Positions 2,848 through 64,000 of a DNA stretch of 64,000 nucleotides are shown here, piece after piece. This DNA comes from a virus, in IMG/VR virus record IMGVR_UViG_3300045988_101578, positions 1 through 64,000 of that record, one strand, 5' to 3'. Positions within the stretch are counted from its first letter, which is position 1. Each line of letters begins with the position of its first letter. The position numbers and the translations under genes were made by a program. The notes below the pieces were generated by a model. It was not told the origin of the DNA, searched no databases, and saw only the letters and a program-made list of their open reading frames with translations.

Positions 2848-3249
2848 ATGATTATGAATTTTGAAAAATATAGAGAACTTGACACAATTAAATTGCATGG
2901 GATTTCTGCTGACATATTTCAAGAGAATGAACATGGAGAACTTATTGATCCTTTACGTGGAAAAGATGCAGACTGGTTAACGGGAAAATCTACATTAGCA
3001 AAAGCGGAAAATTTCAATTTTGAACAATTCGTTCTTAATGAAATCAATCAGCATTTTATTAACAATTTAGAAGCAAAAGATATTTGTATTTGTGGTAGTT
3101 GTTTTTCTTTTTGGAAACAAGAAGATGATGATGGTTTAGAAGATGATAATGGAAAATATTTTGTATCCTATGCCGTTAGTATCACAATTAATGGAAAATA
3201 CATAGATGAAGAAGATTTATACGAACTATTTCCGAATTTTGAATATTAA
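2848..3249 (+). CDS. hypothetical protein
   Basis: ORF with RBS. Confidence 0.5.
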   Translation: MIMNFEKYRELDTIKLHGISADIFQENEHGELIDPLRGKDADWLTGKSTLAKAENFNFEQFVLNEINQHFINNLEAKDICICGSCFSFWKQEDDDGLEDDNGKYFVSYAVSITINGKYIDEEDLYELFPNFEY

Positions 3250-3269: not shown

Positions 3270-3878
3270 ATGAAAACAAAACAGAATAAAACAATCAAGA
3301 TCCTATTAGCCGTAGCACTTATGTTTATGGCTTTTTTAATGATGGAAAATACAGTACACGCAAAGACAAAAAGAAGTAAATACAGAACGACAAACGGCAT
3401 TTACAACGCAGATGGAACAATTGACACGGTTGACGGTTACTGTTGGAAAGTTCGCAAGGAATCATATGCCTATCCAAAGACTACCGTTGTAACTGTAAAA
3501 TTCAATACTCACGGCACTAGAAACAAGCTCGATGATTCGATCGTAAAGATCAATGCAAAGAATAAAAACATCCAGCTTGTAAACGATTATATACGCCACG
3601 AGTACGACTTAAAAGCCTATAGAGTAAAGTATATCAGCACTGGAAAATTAACCGATAAAATGATTCGTGAACGTGCTGTAAAGCATACGATTTATGTGGA
3701 AATTATTAAAAGTGTTTCTGCCGGAGGTAAACATGGAACGTATGAAAAAGGTTATTACATTGCATATAACAAACGTGTACGCAGGGGAAAGCACGTAACA
3801 AGTTATTGCATATGGAATCCTTGCAATAGCTACTGTGATGATGTAGAAGCGATCGCAGATAATGGAAAAATCAGATAG
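3270..3878 (+). CDS. secreted protein with N-terminal signal peptide
   Basis: MKTKQNKTIKILLAVALMFMAFLMMENTVHA signal-like N-terminus. Confidence 0.5.
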   Translation: MKTKQNKTIKILLAVALMFMAFLMMENTVHAKTKRSKYRTTNGIYNADGTIDTVDGYCWKVRKESYAYPKTTVVTVKFNTHGTRNKLDDSIVKINAKNKNIQLVNDYIRHEYDLKAYRVKYISTGKLTDKMIRERAVKHTIYVEIIKSVSAGGKHGTYEKGYYIAYNKRVRRGKHVTSYCIWNPCNSYCDDVEAIADNGKIR

Positions 3879-3894
3879 AAAGAAGGTTGGAATC

Positions 3895-4143
3895 ATGAAA
3901 AAGAAATTAATCAATATTAATATCAAGGCATTTTTGGAAAAATTCAATGAAGAATACGACTTCTTATATGATAACTATGATCGAGTAGCTGGTTATACAG
4001 AAGCACTTGAAGCTGGTGATTCTTTTATAGAAAGTCATTTAGATTTTGTTAAAGAGTTTAATAATTATAGGGGAGATATTCTTTCTAGTGATAGAGAAGT
4101 TGTAGCATTTATGTTTGCATTAGAATCCATGGAGGTGGCATAG
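3895..4143 (+). CDS. hypothetical protein (start moved to the internal ATG with RBS gaaggttgg)
   Basis: track ORF 3862..4143; the ATG at 3895 has the better RBS. Confidence 0.4.
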   Translation: MKKKLININIKAFLEKFNEEYDFLYDNYDRVAGYTEALEAGDSFIESHLDFVKEFNNYRGDILSSDREVVAFMFALESMEVA

Positions 4144-36274: not shown

Positions 36275-36595
36275 GTGATTAATATGGGAGCCAATATTGA
36301 GTTTGCCATTGGCTATGCAATCGGTTTTTGTATCGTTGGAGTGATTGTATTTCTAAGATACGAAAGAAAGATGGATCGACTGAGGAAGACAAATGTAAAT
36401 CTGATCTTGGATAAGATGTCGTTTATGTCAGATGCCAACGACAAAGAAAGTGGTACATATAATAAGGAAGAAACTCGTTCAGATGTTAAGGACGCAGTGA
36501 AGTATGCAATGAAGAAAAGTCATCCAGATAATGGTGGTAGTGCAGATGATTTTAGAAAATTTAGAGAGCTTTATGAAGAAATGGAAGGTAAGTAA
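36275..36595 (+). CDS. membrane protein with a C-terminal J-domain-like segment (HPD motif)
   Basis: AMKKSHPDNGGSADDFRKFRELYEEM resembles the DnaJ J-domain helix II-III. Confidence 0.35.
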   Translation: MINMGANIEFAIGYAIGFCIVGVIVFLRYERKMDRLRKTNVNLILDKMSFMSDANDKESGTYNKEETRSDVKDAVKYAMKKSHPDNGGSADDFRKFRELYEEMEGK

Positions 36596-36877
36596 ATGCT
36601 AAAGGTCGGAGATAGAGTTTATATTTATAGAATGAAGCCAGCGGCTAAAGGAGGTTTGGTTAGAAATAACGACAAAGGTACAATTACTCGCATCGGAACA
36701 GATGAGATTGGTCGCAGATATGGGTATAGATATATGACCGTTAAATTTGACAAACCAGTAAATACCTCTAATCGTGATATTTACTCTTTAGAATTTTTTG
36801 AAAACAAGGATGATCGTAAGATAGGTAGAATACGAGATATTGGATTCTTACTATATGGTAGAAAATGTGAGGAATAA
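36596..36877 (+). CDS. hypothetical protein
   Basis: ORF, tightly coupled to neighbours. Confidence 0.45.
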   Translation: MLKVGDRVYIYRMKPAAKGGLVRNNDKGTITRIGTDEIGRRYGYRYMTVKFDKPVNTSNRDIYSLEFFENKDDRKIGRIRDIGFLLYGRKCEE

Positions 36878-36882
36878 GACTC

Positions 36883-37071
36883 ATGAGTAAACAAGACTCA
36901 TTAAAGTTTCTGAAAAGTCTGATTGATGAAATTAGAAACGGTTTAACAAAAGAAGATATTGAGCGAGGTCAGAAATTGATGGAGAAAATAAAAAAAGAAG
37001 AACTAAAAGAAGTTGAAAATAGTGATGGGTATTGGGAATTTATAATGCCAGATGGTAAAGGAGTGAAGTAG
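36883..37071 (+). CDS. small hypothetical protein immediately upstream of the nuclease gene (stop 2 nt before its ATG)
   Basis: ORF. Confidence 0.4.
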   Translation: MSKQDSLKFLKSLIDEIRNGLTKEDIERGQKLMEKIKKEELKEVENSDGYWEFIMPDGKGVK

Positions 37072-37073
37072 AT

Positions 37074-38705
37074 ATGGCTAAGAAACAAGACGATAACACA
37101 ATGACAATTGCAAGGAAAATCACGTTAATTCCTGTTGCAAGCGAGCGAAAAGAGTGGAAGAAAAGAATTGATGCTTTCTTAGAAAAAGATTTTCCAAGGA
37201 AAATTGAAGCAAAGAAGAAACAGATTAAGAACACAAGTAAACCAGAAAAGAAAGATGGGTATAAACAGCAGCTTGCAGAATTAGAAAAGCAATATGAAGA
37301 GTTCAAAGAAAATGAAATGAAAGAATACACTCAGAAAATGGTTAATGATTATACATATGGTCTTGTGAGAGATGCGATGGAAAGTGAAGCAAGGCGAAAG
37401 AATTACATTATGTCATACATATATACAAAAATGGTACAGGACGAAGTAGCGAATTTACCGACTCTTACAGAAAAGAATAAATGGGTGAGTGCCAATGTTA
37501 ACAAATGTTATCGTAAAGCGGGTAATAAAAATGGAAGTATTTTTACAGACGTTGATATTAGTAATCCGTTGATGGGATACGGTTTTGAGTTTAAACAAGC
37601 GCTTACAAGCAAAATTAAGAATTTAATTAAAGATGGAGTATTGAAAGGAAAAGTTTCTGTCCCAAATTATAAATTCGATTCTCCTTTTACTTTAAGTAAT
37701 AAGAGTTTTGGTATTTTTACAGATTGCAAAGATATAACAGAATTAAAAAAGAATATTGGTAAGCCTACATACCCAGTGTATGTGTGCTTGGGCGGTAATG
37801 GTCTTCCAACAATTGCTAAATTCAAGATTAATTTTGGACATAAACAAAACAAGAATAAGGCAGAATTAATTTCAACAATTATTAAGATTTTCACAGGGGA
37901 GTATTCAGTTGGCGGAAGTACATTTGGTATTGATAATAATAAAATAGAAATGAACTTAAGCATAACAATGAAAAAACAAAAAATGGATTTAGATGAAAAT
38001 ACTGTTGTTGGAGTTGACTTGGGACTTGCTGTTCCTGCTGTGTGTGCTTTAAATAATAACGAATATGATAAACAATATATTGGAAGTGGGAATGATCTTG
38101 TTTCAAAAAGAACAAAATTTCAAAATGAATATACGCAGTTACAAAAAGCTTTAAAATTAGCAAAAGGTGGACATGGAAGAAAAAGAAAATTATTAGCTTT
38201 AGAAAGGCTAAAAGAAAAAGAAAACAATTTTGTTGATACATATTGTCATCGAGTTAGTAAAAAAGTTGTTGATTATGCAATCAAACATAGAGCAAAATAT
38301 ATCAACATAGAAAATTTAAAAGGGTATGATTCAAGTGAATTTGTTTTAAGAAATTGGAGCTTTTATAAACTACAGCAATATATTACATATAAAGCAGAAC
38401 AATGTGGGATCATAGTTAGAAAAATCAATCCATCATTTACATCTCAAGTGTGTAGTTTTTGTGGGCACTGGGAGAAAGGACAAAGAAAAGATCAGGCAAC
38501 ATTTAAATGTAAGAACCCTAATTGTAAAAGTCACAAGCTATATACTGTAAATGCAGATTACAATGCGGCTAGAAACATCGCAATGTCAACACAATTTACA
38601 GACGATAAATTTAAATGTTCAGAAGAAACGATTCAAGCTGCGGCAGATTATTATGGAATTGTATTAGAAGATGATAAAAATAATGATAATAAAAAAACTG
38701 CTTAA
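37074..38705 (+). CDS. cas12f: Cas12f (Cas14)/TnpB-family RNA-guided nuclease, 543 aa; RuvC split by a CxxC...CxxC zinc finger; catalytic D/E/D intact
   Basis: RuvC-I VVGVDLGLAVPAVCALNN; GGHGRKRK linker; RuvC-II KYINIENLKG; Zn finger CSFCGH...CKNPNCKSH; RuvC-III NADYNAARNIA; RBS gaaggagtgaag; followed by tracr-like RNAs and repeat-spacer arrays. Confidence 0.8.
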   Translation: MAKKQDDNTMTIARKITLIPVASERKEWKKRIDAFLEKDFPRKIEAKKKQIKNTSKPEKKDGYKQQLAELEKQYEEFKENEMKEYTQKMVNDYTYGLVRDAMESEARRKNYIMSYIYTKMVQDEVANLPTLTEKNKWVSANVNKCYRKAGNKNGSIFTDVDISNPLMGYGFEFKQALTSKIKNLIKDGVLKGKVSVPNYKFDSPFTLSNKSFGIFTDCKDITELKKNIGKPTYPVYVCLGGNGLPTIAKFKINFGHKQNKNKAELISTIIKIFTGEYSVGGSTFGIDNNKIEMNLSITMKKQKMDLDENTVVGVDLGLAVPAVCALNNNEYDKQYIGSGNDLVSKRTKFQNEYTQLQKALKLAKGGHGRKRKLLALERLKEKENNFVDTYCHRVSKKVVDYAIKHRAKYINIENLKGYDSSEFVLRNWSFYKLQQYITYKAEQCGIIVRKINPSFTSQVCSFCGHWEKGQRKDQATFKCKNPNCKSHKLYTVNADYNAARNIAMSTQFTDDKFKCSEETIQAAADYYGIVLEDDKNNDNKKTA

Positions 38706-38852
38706 ATATTTGGTGTGTTTTGGAGGGAGTTCGGTACTCCCTCAGCCATAAATAAAATGGTTACGCCAAAAGTGAGGAGAAATCACTCACTAAAATTTGT
38801 GTAATGAAGCAGAACGTAAAGTTTTGTATTGTATACATAATTAAGATTTGAG
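38706..38852 (+). ncRNA. tracrRNA-like scaffold 1 (conserved blocks tggtgtgttttgg / acgccaaaagtgag / actcactaaaat, then an anti-repeat atttgtgtaat and gttttgtatt complementary to repeat family 1)
   Basis: hairpin gagggagt/actccctc; stem agtgag/ctcact; anti-repeat complementary to attacacaaat of the downstream repeat. Confidence 0.6.
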
Positions 38853-38954
38853 GTTTGAGAACCATAAAAAATTACACAAATACAAAACGATCTTGGCTCG
38901 CTGATCCAGTGCATGGGTGTTTGAGAACCATAAAAAATTACACAAATAAAATAC
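38853..38954 (+). CRISPR. mini CRISPR array 1: 36-nt repeat gtttgagaaccataaaaaattacacaaatacaaaac, 30-nt spacer gatcttggctcgctgatccagtgcatgggt, second repeat 34/36 identical
   Basis: repeat-spacer-repeat read directly. Confidence 0.7.
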
Positions 38955-39089
38955 ATGGCATGTTTTGGGAAATTTTATTCCAATTAAAATTTCTGGTCAC
39001 AGAGTTGTGGCTATGCCAAAAGTGAGATCGTAAGGTACTCACTAAAATCTATGTAAATTAGGTAACAAAATTGGACAAAAGAATTTGAG
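38955..39089 (+). ncRNA. tracrRNA-like scaffold 2 (catgttttggg ... tatgccaaaagtgag ... actcactaaaat then anti-repeat ctatgtaaattaggtaacaaa)
   Basis: hairpin gaaatttta/taaaatttc; stem agtgag/ctcact with a different loop; anti-repeat complementary to repeat family 2. Confidence 0.6.
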
Positions 39090-39263
39090 GTTTGATACCT
39101 AATTAATTTTACATAGGTACAAAACTGTGCAAGCCTCTTTCTTCTGCTAATGCTTTGTTTGATACCTAATTAATTTTACATAGGTACAAAACGGCAGAAG
39201 CAATTAAAGAAAAAATGCAAAAATGTAGTTTGATGCCTAATTAATTTTACATCATAAACTTAA
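39090..39263 (+). CRISPR. mini CRISPR array 2: two exact 36-nt repeats gtttgatacctaattaattttacataggtacaaaac, spacers of 31 and 35 nt, and a degenerate terminal repeat gtttgatgcctaattaattttacatcataaacttaa
   Basis: R-S-R-S-degenerate R architecture. Confidence 0.8.
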
Positions 39264-39273
39264 TAAAATTTTA

Positions 39274-39400
39274 AAATATTTGGTGTGTTTTGGGAGTATA
39301 TAAAATATTCTGCTCAAATAATATTGAGTACGCCAAAAGTGAGGCTTACTATAGCACTCACTAAAATCTATGTTATATTGTCGGATTTATGTTATTTGAT
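39274..39400 (+). ncRNA. tracrRNA-like scaffold 3 (aaatatttggtgtgttttgggag ... tacgccaaaagtgag ... actcactaaaat then anti-repeat ctatgttat ... ttgtc)
   Basis: first 20 nt identical to the scaffold-1 start; anti-repeat complementary to repeat family 3. Confidence 0.6.
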
Positions 39401-39497
39401 GTTTGACAACTATAAAAAATAACATAGGTACAAAACCAACACATTTGCCCTTGATTTATCGAATGTGTTTGGCAATTATAAAAAAAATAACAAAAAC
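39401..39497 (+). CRISPR. mini CRISPR array 3: 36-nt repeat gtttgacaactataaaaaataacataggtacaaaac, 30-nt spacer caacacatttgcccttgatttatcgaatgt, degenerate 31-nt terminal repeat
   Basis: read directly. Confidence 0.65.
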
Positions 39498-39517
39498 CTA
39501 AAGGAATTTAAACAAAA

Positions 39518-39685
39518 ATGAAAACAAGACGGCAACGTAAACAGGAAATAAAACGATTCTTTGATCGGCTGAGTCCCAGTGAATTGGACAGGCTGTTAGA
39601 AAGAAATGGAATTAATGATAGAGAGTCCAATGAAGCTTCTGTATATAGAATCATTAAAGAAGAAATTGAGAAAGGAGAGATATAA
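39518..39685 (+). CDS. small basic protein (55 aa, MKTRRQRKQEIKRFFDRLSPSELDRLLERNG...) immediately after the arrays; below the ORF-track cutoff
   Basis: ATG 39518 with RBS aaggaa 12 nt upstream; stop 39683-39685. Confidence 0.35.
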   Translation: MKTRRQRKQEIKRFFDRLSPSELDRLLERNGINDRESNEASVYRIIKEEIEKGEI

Positions 39686-39686
39686 T

Positions 39687-39989
39687 ATGGCACATAACTT
39701 GTATATTGAAACACAATCAGAATATACAGGATGTAGTCCACAGCTGGAGGTATTAAATGTAAGAGATTGCAAACATATCATTGCATCATTAGATCATTAC
39801 CCACCTACAGCCGAGGAGGTTAAGAAAGCAGCTTGTATATTAATCGGACGATGTATTTACAAACGTATTTGGAACATGGAAATCGACATTGATAATTTGG
39901 ATATGCATTGTTCTCCGCCAAAAGAAATGACGATTGAAGAAATTGAAAAGGAACTTGGTTATAAAGTTAAAATTGTAAAGGAGAAATAA
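39687..39989 (+). CDS. hypothetical protein (start at ATG 39687 after RBS aaaggagaga)
   Basis: track ORF 39606..39989 extends 5-prime over the small ORF. Confidence 0.45.
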   Translation: MAHNLYIETQSEYTGCSPQLEVLNVRDCKHIIASLDHYPPTAEEVKKAACILIGRCIYKRIWNMEIDIDNLDMHCSPPKEMTIEEIEKELGYKVKIVKEK

Positions 39990-40300
39990 TGCCAATGGCA
40001 AAAAAGAAACAAGGAATGTCGTTTGAAATGATGATGCAAAATATGGAAATTAATCCAAGGCAATTGTATCGTCGTAGTTCGTGGAAGAAGACACGAACAA
40101 CTTATGATTATGTGTTTATGATGTGCGAAGAAGAATTAAATGAGATTATTCCATTTGATAAAAAATATAAAATGAAACCACTCTTATGTAGAGACCAAAA
40201 TGGAGTTATAACATTGGGATGGTTGCCTACACAAGAGGATATTTTCGCAAATGATTGGGTTGAGCAAGGATGGGATTTTAACAGTAAAAGGAAGAGGTGA
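39989..40300 (+). CDS. hypothetical protein
   Basis: ORF. Confidence 0.45.
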   Translation: MPMAKKKQGMSFEMMMQNMEINPRQLYRRSSWKKTRTTYDYVFMMCEEELNEIIPFDKKYKMKPLLCRDQNGVITLGWLPTQEDIFANDWVEQGWDFNSKRKR

Positions 40301-62757: not shown

Positions 62758-64000
62758 ATGAAAACTGAATATGTGAAAGAAATGAATGTCTTGATCGACA
62801 GAATCAATGATGCTTCATATGCGTACTACGCAGAGGATAATCCGATCATTTCAGATAAAGAATTTGACGATTTATGCGCTGCTTTAGAACGACTTGAGAG
62901 AGATTCTGACGTTGTTTTGAATAATTCGCCCATCCACCACGTTCAAGGATTTATAATTGATTCTCTTGCTAAAGTAAAGCATACACGCCCAATGTTATCA
63001 GCTCAGAAGACGAAGGATGTCAATGAGGTCAAAAAATTTCTTGCGGATAAAATTGGTGTTTTATCGTGGAAAGAAGATGGTCTCAGTATTGTTCTCAGAT
63101 ACGAAAATGGACGCTTAAAACAAGCAATTACAAGGGGAAATGGAGAAATCGGTGAGGATGTCACTCACACGATGAAAATGGTACGAAATGTTCCACAGTC
63201 AATCCCTGAAAAGCGTTATCTTGAAATTCGTGGTGAAGCAGTTATTGGATATGATGATTTTGCTAAGATTAATGAAAAATTACATGGCAAATACAAAAAT
63301 GCAAGAAATTTAGCAGCAGGTACTGTTAGACAGTTAGACTCTAATGTGGCAAAAGACAGGAAGTTGGCTTACAAAGTATTTGAATTAGTCAAACTTGGAG
63401 ACACACCTGAATCAGAAATGCCAAGCATTGCAGATAGCTTTAAATATCTTGCAGAACAAGGGTTTGATGTAGTAGAGCATCAGGTCGTTAACCGAGATAA
63501 TGTTGAAGAGTATATGGCAACATTTCAGCCAGAAGAATACAAATATCCTGTTGATGGTTTAATTATTTCCTACAACGATTATCAATATGGTAAATCGTTA
63601 GGAATGACGGGGCATCATCCATTATCGTTGATCGCCTACAAATATAAAGATGACCTCTACGAAACAACAATCAGAGATATTGAATGGAATACATCTCGTA
63701 CAGGGTTGATTAATCCAGTTGCAGTATTCGATCCAGTTGATCTTGATGGCGCAGAAACCACAAGAGCTACATTACATAATGTAAGTTACATTGAAGGGTT
63801 GGAACTTGGTGCAGGTGATACGATTCAGGTTTATCGTAGTAATATGGTGATTCCAAAAGTACACGATAATCTGACAAGAAGCAATACATTCAAGATTCCA
63901 GATACTTGTCCAACCTGCGGTGGCGAAGCAAAAATCATCAATGAAAATGGTAGCAAAGTTTTAAAATGCATGAATCCTGACTGCAAAGCGAAATTGTTAA
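62758..64000 (+). CDS. ligA: NAD-dependent DNA ligase LigA (truncated by the window end)
   Basis: YYAEDNPIISDKEFDDL; RPMLSAQKT; WKEDG (KxDG adenylation site); TRGNGEIGEDVT; CPTCGG zinc finger near the end. Confidence 0.85.
   Translation, partial: MKTEYVKEMNVLIDRINDASYAYYAEDNPIISDKEFDDLCAALERLERDSDVVLNNSPIHHVQGFIIDSLAKVKHTRPMLSAQKTKDVNEVKKFLADKIGVLSWKEDGLSIVLRYENGRLKQAITRGNGEIGEDVTHTMKMVRNVPQSIPEKRYLEIRGEAVIGYDDFAKINEKLHGKYKNARNLAAGTVRQLDSNVAKDRKLAYKVFELVKLGDTPESEMPSIADSFKYLAEQGFDVVEHQVVNRDNVEEYMATFQPEEYKYPVDGLIISYNDYQYGKSLGMTGHHPLSLIAYKYKDDLYETTIRDIEWNTSRTGLINPVAVFDPVDLDGAETTRATLHNVSYIEGLELGAGDTIQVYRSNMVIPKVHDNLTRSNTFKIPDTCPTCGGEAKIINENGSKVLKCMNPDCKAKLL

Follow-up and report, generated by a model that had tools for sequence, protein, structure and literature searches.

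The closest described counterparts of the locus reported here are the type V-F1 CRISPR systems, in which a Cas12f nuclease (Un1Cas12f1, AsCas12f, CnCas12f1 of structure 8HR5, or Al3Cas12f of structure 9NZO) is accompanied by a trans-activating CRISPR RNA (tracrRNA) encoded on the same strand between the nuclease gene and the repeat-spacer array. Their guides share an order of 5' stems, a hairpin, an A-rich linker, and an anti-repeat; a hexamer in a loop or junction pairs with the end of the repeat (helix 1), and the 3' tail pairs with the repeat (helix 2). They have a T-rich 5' protospacer-adjacent motif (PAM), lack cas1, cas2, and cas4, and, in the Alistipes uCas loci, combine 36-nt repeats with spacers of ~30 nt. 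We analyzed a stretch of 64,000 nucleotides of phage DNA (IMG/VR record IMGVR_UViG_3300045988_101578, positions 1 to 64,000; hereafter the window), in which a segment at 38711-39372, directly 3' of an open reading frame (ORF) of 543 codons (37074-38705, + strand), holds three related RNA-like scaffolds, each followed by a miniature CRISPR array. All of the above traits recur in this locus, the T-rich PAM being read from two protospacers of orthologous systems. The three scaffolds are very probably paralogous genes for the tracrRNA of a type V-F (Cas12f-like) CRISPR system that a phage carries.

The locus also departs from the known systems. A single tracrRNA and a single array are described for known Cas12f loci, among them the closest, from Alistipes, whereas the window has three tracrRNA-array pairs and its relatives up to four. 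Two hairpins within the loop of the outer stem create a three-way junction here, where distant relatives and Al3Cas12f have a plain hairpin, and the system is carried by a phage, unlike the type V-F1 loci compared. Tandem scaffold-plus-guide units are also found in the omega-RNA arrays of TnpB-related proteins (the Cas12f1 and V-U40-43 clades and sigma-associated inactivated TnpB; PMC10691335), which share with the window a scaffold that begins at the 3' end of the nuclease gene, a guide-pseudoknot-stem core, and a single-guide-like fold of the cassette. By contrast, the window has true repeat-spacer-repeat arrays (with up to three spacers in relatives), separate anti-repeats, and no fusion of scaffold and guide, and its nuclease differs from sigma-associated inactivated TnpB in keeping the catalytic residues. 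Altae-Tran et al. (2023) proposed the fusion of half a repeat with the tracrRNA, followed by duplication (PMC10691335); therefore, the general idea of tandem scaffold-plus-guide units already exists.

Known compact CRISPR loci of phages likewise lack adaptation genes, have very short arrays, and carry spacers against competing phages. The present locus differs from them in its Cas12f-like effector, its predicted dependence on tracrRNA, and the splitting of its arrays into tracrRNA-headed cassettes. Phage-encoded mimics of the Cas9 single-guide RNA (sgRNA), reported in 2026 preprints (vsgRNA and rAcrIIA1), also join tracrRNA-like and CRISPR RNA (crRNA)-like parts in one unit, but they inhibit the Cas9 of the host, whereas here the matching nuclease is on the phage and the spacers look like working guides. 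No description of multiple tracrRNAs or of tracrRNA-array cassettes in Cas12f or phage loci was found in the open-access literature. Relative to that literature, the new elements are tandem units that each have a true mini-array, a cassette-specific anti-repeat pair, and a layout kept across a large phage clade.

RESULTS

Scaffold architecture and its conservation

The locus consists of three modules 3' of the nuclease gene, each comprising a scaffold of ~100 nt, a short linker, and a mini-array of 36-nt repeats. With a covariance model trained on 19 copies, taken from seven IMG/VR loci that are nearly identical, three sites and no others were matched in the window; all lie on the + strand and score 103-110 bits (E ~1e-19 to 1e-20). 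From 5' to 3', the shared architecture comprises an outer stem (P1) enclosing two hairpins (P2 and P3), a further hairpin (P4, GUGAG/CUCAC), UAAAAU, and an anti-repeat tail. In tracrRNA 1 (38707-38810, +; 110.2 bits), P1 is at 38711-38717/38762-38768, the hexamer GUUUUG at 38717-38722, P2 at 38723-38743, P3 at 38745-38761, P4 at 38771-38791, the linker AAAAU at 38792-38796, and the 3' anti-repeat, AUUUGUGUAAU, at 38795-38805. tracrRNA 2 (38952-39062, +; 102.6 bits) has P1 at 38956-38962/39013-39018, GUUUUG at 38962-38967, P2 at 38968-38994, P3 at 38995-39012, P4 at 39021-39043, and the linker at 39044-39048; its 3' anti-repeat (39049-39069) extends past the match to the model. The corresponding parts of tracrRNA 3 (39277-39382, +; 103.1 bits) are P1 at 39281-39287/39330-39335, GUUUUG at 39287-39292, P2 at 39293-39311, P3 at 39312-39329, P4 at 39338-39362, the linker at 39363-39367, and the 3' anti-repeat at 39368-39382.

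When each copy was folded singly and compared with shuffled sequences, the z values of tracrRNAs 1 to 3 were -4.7, -5.2, and -3.4, and one minimum-free-energy architecture was obtained for all three. An earlier sequence-only reading of this DNA had taken the three copies for a structured RNA and had named inconsistent structures among them as the outcome that would count against this; the copies fold alike. The covariance-model search that it had proposed, run here with copies from relatives, gave the three sites in the window and matches in other phage loci. The motifs on which it had relied are present: ttttgg at 38718-38723, 38963-38968, and 39288-39293; gccaaaa at 38765-38771, 39015-39021, and 39332-39338; gagggagt/actccctc in module 1 and gaaatttta/taaaatttc in module 2; and agtgag...ctcact with aaaat in all three modules. 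Scaffolds 1 and 3 share their first 20 nt (38704-38723 and 39274-39293), which in scaffold 1 begin within the TAA stop codon of the nuclease gene (38703-38705).

Conservation of the fold was measured in an alignment fitted to the model, which comprised 71 matches, 57 of them distinct in sequence, drawn from the window and from 39 further phage loci. In this alignment, 96.7% of the cells assigned to stems were paired, compared with 80.4% after shuffling, and sliding the partner by 1-3 columns lowered pairing to 30-49%. The covariation score of P1 and P2 was 0.366, against 0.139 for shuffled controls, and was reached by none of 500 shuffles. Many compensatory changes were seen in P1 and at the base of P2. 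In P1 (UGGYRU with AYRCCA; 95.7% of cells paired), both sides change in six of the seven pairs, for example from UA to CG and from AU to GC. A plain MAFFT alignment of the scaffolds put P2 and P3 out of register, and these hairpins were therefore judged from single-sequence folds. Folded independently, 49 of 52 distinct full-length copies took the same shape, with P2 and P3 side by side inside P1 and P4 after it, and 33 P2 and 34 P3 sequences occur among them. The same shape in nearly all copies and the compensatory changes in P1 and P2 bear out the earlier statement that conserved stems with drifting loops mark a structured RNA under selection. The G-U pairs and the restriction of the matches to one strand place this structure in RNA of the + strand.

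Some of the pairings first proposed had to be revised. An enclosing stem exists, but it lies one register 5' of the proposed one and is formed by UGGYRU with AYRCCA; for ttttgg with ccaaaa, all covariation measures over the 57 distinct sequences equaled those of shuffled controls, and this pairing competes with P1 for CCA. The internal hairpin was correctly recognized, but each scaffold has two rather than one, and both hairpins of module 3 had been missed. The agtgag/ctcact hairpin was also found, but each of its loops had been quoted without one A before ctcact. A separate observation concerns the P2 loop of module-2-type scaffolds, which contains CCAA/CCCAAA (38980-38983 in the window). This motif is kept in the module-2-type copies of relatives and absent from the module 1 and 3 types; it is complementary to UUGG of the GUUUUGG junction and could form an alternative or tertiary pairing with it.

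Pairing of the scaffolds with the repeats

All repeats in the window end in CAAAAC, directly 5' of the spacer, and the hexamer GUUUUG is the reverse complement of this ending. To judge from these sequences, the ttttgg motif, rather than forming half of an internal stem, acts as a second anti-repeat whose partner is the 3' end of the CRISPR repeat. Across relatives (loci designated L plus a number), a change in the hexamer is accompanied by one at the repeat end of its module: GUUCUG with CAGAAC (L016 module 3 and L019 module 4), GUUUCG with CGAAAC (module 2 of L019 and L042), AUUCAG with CUGAAC (L035), ACUUUG with CAAAGC (L041 and L033), AUUUUA with UAAAAC (L079, L080, and L050), and AUUUUG with CAAAAU (L051, L054, L057, and L038). 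A perfect 5-bp pseudoknot core was found in 33 of 33 distinct tracrRNA-repeat pairs, in six versions (UUUUG/CAAAA, UUUCG/CGAAA, UUCUG/CAGAA, UUCAG/CUGAA, CUUUG/CAAAG, and UUUUA/UAAAA). With shuffled partners, the mean was 15.5, and none of 20000 shuffles reached 33.

Pairings of this kind are known from verified guide RNAs. In Al3Cas12f, the loop GUUGGA pairs with the crRNA end ...UCCAAC, and in MG119-2, UUUUAU pairs with AUAAAA (PMC13186708, supplement). A pseudoknot (repeat:anti-repeat 1) precedes the guide in both the Cas12f sgRNA and the TnpB omega-RNA, and stem 5 corresponds to repeat:anti-repeat 2 (PMC10097598). The Al3Cas12f tracrRNA ends in CACUCAAAAAAU followed by the anti-repeat (PMC13186708). 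The unpaired block of ~9 nt before the spacer is AUACAAAAC here and AUAUCCAAC in Al3Cas12f.

In each scaffold, the tail after UAAAAU is complementary to the repeat of its own module. The module 1 tail (AUUUGUGUAAU) forms 11 bp with the repeat segment AUUACACAAAU, the module 2 tail (CUAUGUAAA and UUAGGUAaCAAA) pairs with both halves of the repeat, and the module 3 tail consists of CUAUGUUAU and UUGUC. A second complementary segment of the module 1 tail, GTTTTGTATT, showed no covariation with the repeat in relatives and was dropped. The duplex with the cognate repeat was calculated at -11.8 kcal/mol for module 1 (-8.2 and -6.1 with the other repeats), -20.5 kcal/mol for module 2 (-4.2 and -8.6), and -16.3 kcal/mol for module 3 (-4.4 and -10.3). 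The cognate duplex was the most stable in every case, both in the window and among the four modules of L019, in which the pseudoknot hexamers also differ between modules. Across relatives, tail and repeat covary (CUAUG/CAUAG, GUAUG/CAUAC, CUGUG/CACAG, and UUGUG/CACAA).

These results bear on whether the scaffolds might act as DNA, as array leaders with promoter or spacer-integration signals whose mutual likeness comes from protein-DNA binding. Such a role would suit their position on the leader side of an array with a degenerate distal repeat, and a conserved TAAAAT-like box and an ATTTGAG motif followed by G flank the scaffolds. It would not account for the compensatory double changes that hold P1, P2, and P3 paired as the sequence shifts, for the many G-U pairs, which are workable only in + strand RNA, for the covariation of GUUUUG and the tail with the repeat, or for a layout equal to that of verified Cas12f guide RNAs. 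We consider the leader explanation very unlikely.

The nuclease

The gene at 37074-38705 (+) encodes a Cas12f-family RNA-guided nuclease of 543 amino acids, as indicated by Pfam, NCBIfam, and solved-structure matches and by invariant residues. The protein matches the Pfam families Cas12f1-like_TNB and OrfB_IS605 and the NCBIfam model guided_TnpB (RNA-guided TnpB family; 135.6 bits against a cutoff of 100), and its match to the NCBIfam model Cas12f2 falls below the cutoff of that model. The closest solved structures are Al3Cas12f (9nzo/9nzr, E = 2e-59) and CnCas12f1 (8hr5, E = 5e-59), followed by RhCas12f, AsCas12f, and Un1Cas12f1; Cas12p was matched at E = 3e-5 only. The RuvC residues D315, E413, and D495 and the four cysteines of the CxxC...CxxC zinc finger are intact and are invariant in 20 homologues. 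The N-terminal ~180 residues have no sequence match to solved structures. The window holds one nuclease gene and no paralogue; a weak tblastn match at 63739-63999, considered as a second nuclease, is the zinc finger of an NAD-dependent ligase.

The match to the TnpB-family model above its cutoff raises the question of whether the scaffolds are omega-RNA (also called reRNA) remnants of TnpB copies, that is, right ends of the IS200/IS605 type. Scaffold 1 begins at the nuclease stop codon, which is the usual site of an omega-RNA, and the guide-pseudoknot-stem core is common to omega-RNA and Cas12f guide RNAs. However, the nuclease gene is single, its nearest solved relatives are Cas12f enzymes, and no TnpA was found among the 20 ORFs examined. 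True repeat-spacer-repeat units follow every scaffold, with spacers that vary between near-identical phages, and scaffold and guide are not joined directly but stand apart, separated by a repeat that has two anti-repeat matches. The locus is, moreover, syntenic in many phages. An omega-RNA origin of these scaffolds is thus extremely improbable.

Mini-arrays, spacers, and targets

The numbers of spacers in mini-arrays 1, 2, and 3 are one, two, and one, and the final repeat of every array is degenerate in its 3' part. Mini-array 1 (38853-38954, +) consists of a repeat (38853-38888), spacer S1 (38889-38918), and the terminal degenerate repeat (38919-38954). Mini-array 2 (39090-39263, +) has repeats at 39090-39125, 39157-39192, and 39228-39263 (terminal, degenerate), with spacers S2a (39126-39156) and S2b (39193-39227) between them. 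Mini-array 3 (39401-39502, +) has a repeat at 39401-39436, spacer S3 at 39437-39466, and the terminal degenerate repeat at 39467-39502. All repeats of the window are 36 nt long, and the spacers are 30-35 nt. Directly 5' of the first repeat of each cassette stands ATTTGAG or ATTTGAT (38846-38852, 39083-39089, and 39394-39400); the first repeat itself begins with GTTTGA, and relatives carry TTTGRGG at the pre-repeat site. The motif resembles a duplicate of the repeat start; it may serve in processing, mark the junction of leader and repeat, or pair with another segment.

Spacers differ among phages with nucleases 90-93% identical to that of the window, and two 99%-identical loci share the spacers of the window. 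Protospacers were found for 2 of 134 distinct spacers. The first, targeted by the module 2 spacer of L042, lies inside the cas12f gene of the window (38263-38292, - strand) with the 5' flank TTTG. The match has two mismatches in the window and one in L003 (BLAST E = 2.8e-9), with one to three across the phage clade of the window; the nuclease of L042 is 61% identical. On these sequences, the CRISPR system of one phage appears to be aimed at the CRISPR nuclease gene of a rival. The second, targeted by an L035 spacer, occurs in phages of Lachnospiraceae, Agathobacter, Coprococcus, and Dorea, with 29 of 29 positions matching in six records and one mismatch in two more, and has the 5' flank TTTTT. 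Both protospacers are consistent with a repeat-then-spacer order on the + strand and with the T-rich 5' PAM usual for Cas12f.

Of the spacers in the window, S2b matches three metagenome contigs of 11-15 kb (L172 at 332-355, L173, and L174) over its first 24 nt. The matched site is a small ribbon-helix-helix-like gene upstream of a replication initiator, ParA, and an invertase, and these contigs look plasmid-like or phage-plasmid-like. An exact search for S1 in metagenomes found nothing, and searches with three spacers of close relatives found arrays only. Apparent cross-matches of spacers sp84 and sp86 turned out to be spacers common to arrays rather than targets. The spacers of L050 (~3044) and L045 (~3129-3155) are reverse complements of each other over 27 nt, a pattern suggesting that one target region was captured independently on both its strands.

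The spacers also speak to the possibility that the cassettes are decoys or hijackers of a host Cas12f, acting as RNA anti-CRISPRs or viral single-guide mimics. Phage sgRNA mimics that subvert Cas9 have been described in 2026 preprints, viral mini-arrays that use host Cas proteins are known, and a related contig (L177) has a hybrid array with no nuclease or scaffold within 4.7 kb. Yet an intact cognate nuclease gene adjoins the cassettes in the window and in 190 IMG/VR stretches, and no host Cas12f with these repeats was identified, the close relatives in GTDB (43-49% identity) being on four contigs of metagenome-assembled genomes (MAGs). The spacers, moreover, turn over and match rival mobile elements beside a T-rich flank, as working guides would. 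We therefore give the decoy explanation very little credence.

Cassette layout in relatives

Relatives of the nuclease are encoded in 190 IMG/VR stretches, mostly on contigs of 44-216 kb. Three cassettes are present in all loci with nucleases of 90-99% identity and in those of 69-70% identity. At 61-62% identity, four cassettes are seen in two loci and two in another; the count in more distant loci ranges from one to three, and some of these cassettes lie upstream of the gene. At least two scaffolds were found in 20 of the 40 sources with a scaffold match. Scaffolds at the same position in different phages are more alike than those at different positions in the same phage: scaffold 1 of the window is 84% identical to scaffold 1 of L015 and 75% identical to that of L019, against just 57-69% for scaffolds 2 and 3 of the window. 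It follows that the scaffolds were duplicated long ago and have been kept since.

The scaffold is simpler in distant relatives, where P1 forms a plain hairpin whose loop is AUUUUG, with an additional hairpin upstream; the Al3Cas12f guide RNA is laid out in this way too. Among relatives of ~45-54% identity (L021, L022-L031, L035, L044-L066, and others), short-type cassettes are also seen upstream of the nuclease gene. In the GTDB species representatives, close relatives occur on the four MAG contigs only, which are of phage-like size and labeled Lachnospiraceae (two), Erysipelotrichaceae, and Treponema (a contig of 173 kb). The contig L177 (IMGVR_UViG_3300045988_130367) contains, at 3660-3930, what is left of the module 2 linker and, after it, a hybrid array in which two module-2-type repeats precede module-3-type repeats; one of its spacers also occurs in module 3 of L006. 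Nuclease gene and scaffold are absent from this stretch of 4.7 kb. This remnant and the hybrid array indicate that cassettes do fuse and get lost by recombination.

Transcription signals and neighboring genes

A TAAAAT-like box (TTAAAT in module 1) is located at 38702-38707, 38947-38952, and 39272-39277 and ends 4 nt 5' of P1; the box of module 2 falls within the terminal, degenerate repeat of mini-array 1. The box is likewise placed in most of 34 distinct upstream regions of relatives and is a possible -10 element for each cassette. No terminator-like sites were found in the locus by a consensus scan. Only 18-118 nt (median, ~37 nt) separate the anti-repeat from the first repeat. In folds of whole-cassette RNAs, the anti-repeat:repeat duplex forms in cis, and ACAAAAC plus the spacer is left at the 3' side, which is the layout of engineered Cas12f sgRNA. 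Each cassette may thus be transcribed as one RNA, a natural single-guide-like molecule folded in cis as modeled.

Other genes of the window encode DNA polymerase, a helicase, a RecJ-like protein, exonuclease V, an anti-repressor, and an integrase. No DNA similarity to the locus was detected among 50,697 GenBank phage records. Cas1, Cas2, and Cas4 were not found among the 20 ORFs of the window examined, and their absence is usual in the Cas12f branch. An ORF of 55 amino acids (39518-39685, +), starting MKTRRQRKQEIKRFFDRLSPSELDRLLERNG, directly follows the last cassette and is at the same place in all close relatives, including the nuclease-less contig; a family search with it gave no significant match. 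Approximately 0.5 kb past the last array, an ORF of 103 amino acids (39989-40300, +) has a Thoeris anti-defense Tad2-like domain (PF11195, 34.2 bits, above the cutoff), and the CRISPR locus may therefore sit in a counter-defense region.

DISCUSSION

The assignment of the three scaffolds as tracrRNA genes draws on features known for Cas12f tracrRNAs: an adjoining Cas12f-family effector with an intact RuvC domain and zinc finger, a same-strand array whose repeats alternate with variable spacers, a 3' anti-repeat, a pseudoknot helix to the 3' end of the repeat, and a conserved scaffold structure. Uncatalogued as it is, the scaffold would by itself be an ordinary Cas12f tracrRNA, and its likeness to verified Cas12f guide RNAs is at the level of motifs only. 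Several results weigh against the assignment. A scan of 36500-40000 against Rfam at E <= 1 gave zero matches, and the covariation counts come from a model-fitted alignment of kin sequences, so that their numbers are not those of independent events. The PAM evidence consists of two protospacers, one per orthologue. No exact target of S1, S2a, or S3 was found in IMG/VR, where they match only arrays of the same phage, and the S2b match is partial: the last 11 nt differ, and the 5' flank (AAATTCGT) is not T-rich. The orthogonality of the modules is partial, with some non-cognate duplexes that reach -10 kcal/mol in the window and, in L019, -19.4 kcal/mol. A sigma-70 consensus scan found no + strand promoter before the scaffolds, and the only promoter-like sign there is the conserved TAAAAT-like box.

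From the arrangement of the locus, we infer transcription, co-transcription of tracrRNA and array, nuclease binding, cleavage, and the PAM. In the proposed mechanism, each cassette would provide a tracrRNA scaffold, a 3' anti-repeat, a short linker, and a mini-array of one or two spacers. P1, the unpaired GUUUUG, P4 with its GUGAG/CUCAC stem, and UAAAAU are predicted to form a protein-binding core, which would be common to all cassettes because a single nuclease is present, with P2 and P3 as variable insertions in the P1 loop. Guide helix 1 would be formed by GUUUUG with the CAAAAC repeat end directly 5' of the spacer (repeat:anti-repeat 1), and guide helix 2 by the 3' tail with that repeat's middle or 5' part (repeat:anti-repeat 2), the latter in a cassette-specific sequence. 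The nuclease, once loaded with RNA, would cut spacer-matching DNA beside a 5' T-rich motif; the targets seen are phage rivals and an element resembling a plasmid. For the second spacer of module 2, a trans-acting tracrRNA would remain necessary. Several cassettes might be kept, for example, because they can be expressed independently, because guides can be gained and lost through recombination in the absence of Cas1-Cas2, because arrays would recombine less with one another, or because inhibitors that mimic repeats could be evaded.

A wider proposal, which we put forward tentatively and regard as rather doubtful, is that a large clade of gut phages has reorganized Cas12f into tandem, self-contained guide cassettes. 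Each of these would have its own promoter, a single guide folded in cis (tracrRNA-loop-repeat-spacer), and a partly orthogonal anti-repeat pair; they could be duplicated, fused, lost, and exchanged through recombination that needs no Cas1-Cas2, would stand between CRISPR arrays and omega-RNA arrays, and would serve in warfare between phages, including attack on the cas12f gene of a rival.

What stands out is the organization: three or four diverged tracrRNA genes for a single miniature nuclease, each linked to its own mini-array by matching anti-repeats, a layout kept at 62-70% nuclease identity. Covariation alone defines the guide-RNA architecture of the clade without experiment. If the cassettes work in the way proposed, they would supply natural, partly orthogonal tracrRNA:crRNA pairs for one compact editor and natural single-guide-like transcripts useful for guide design and multiplexing. 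They would also represent a testable intermediate between omega-RNA, split tracrRNA/crRNA, and omega-RNA arrays, and would add a clear example of gut phages associated with Lachnospiraceae that target other phages by CRISPR.

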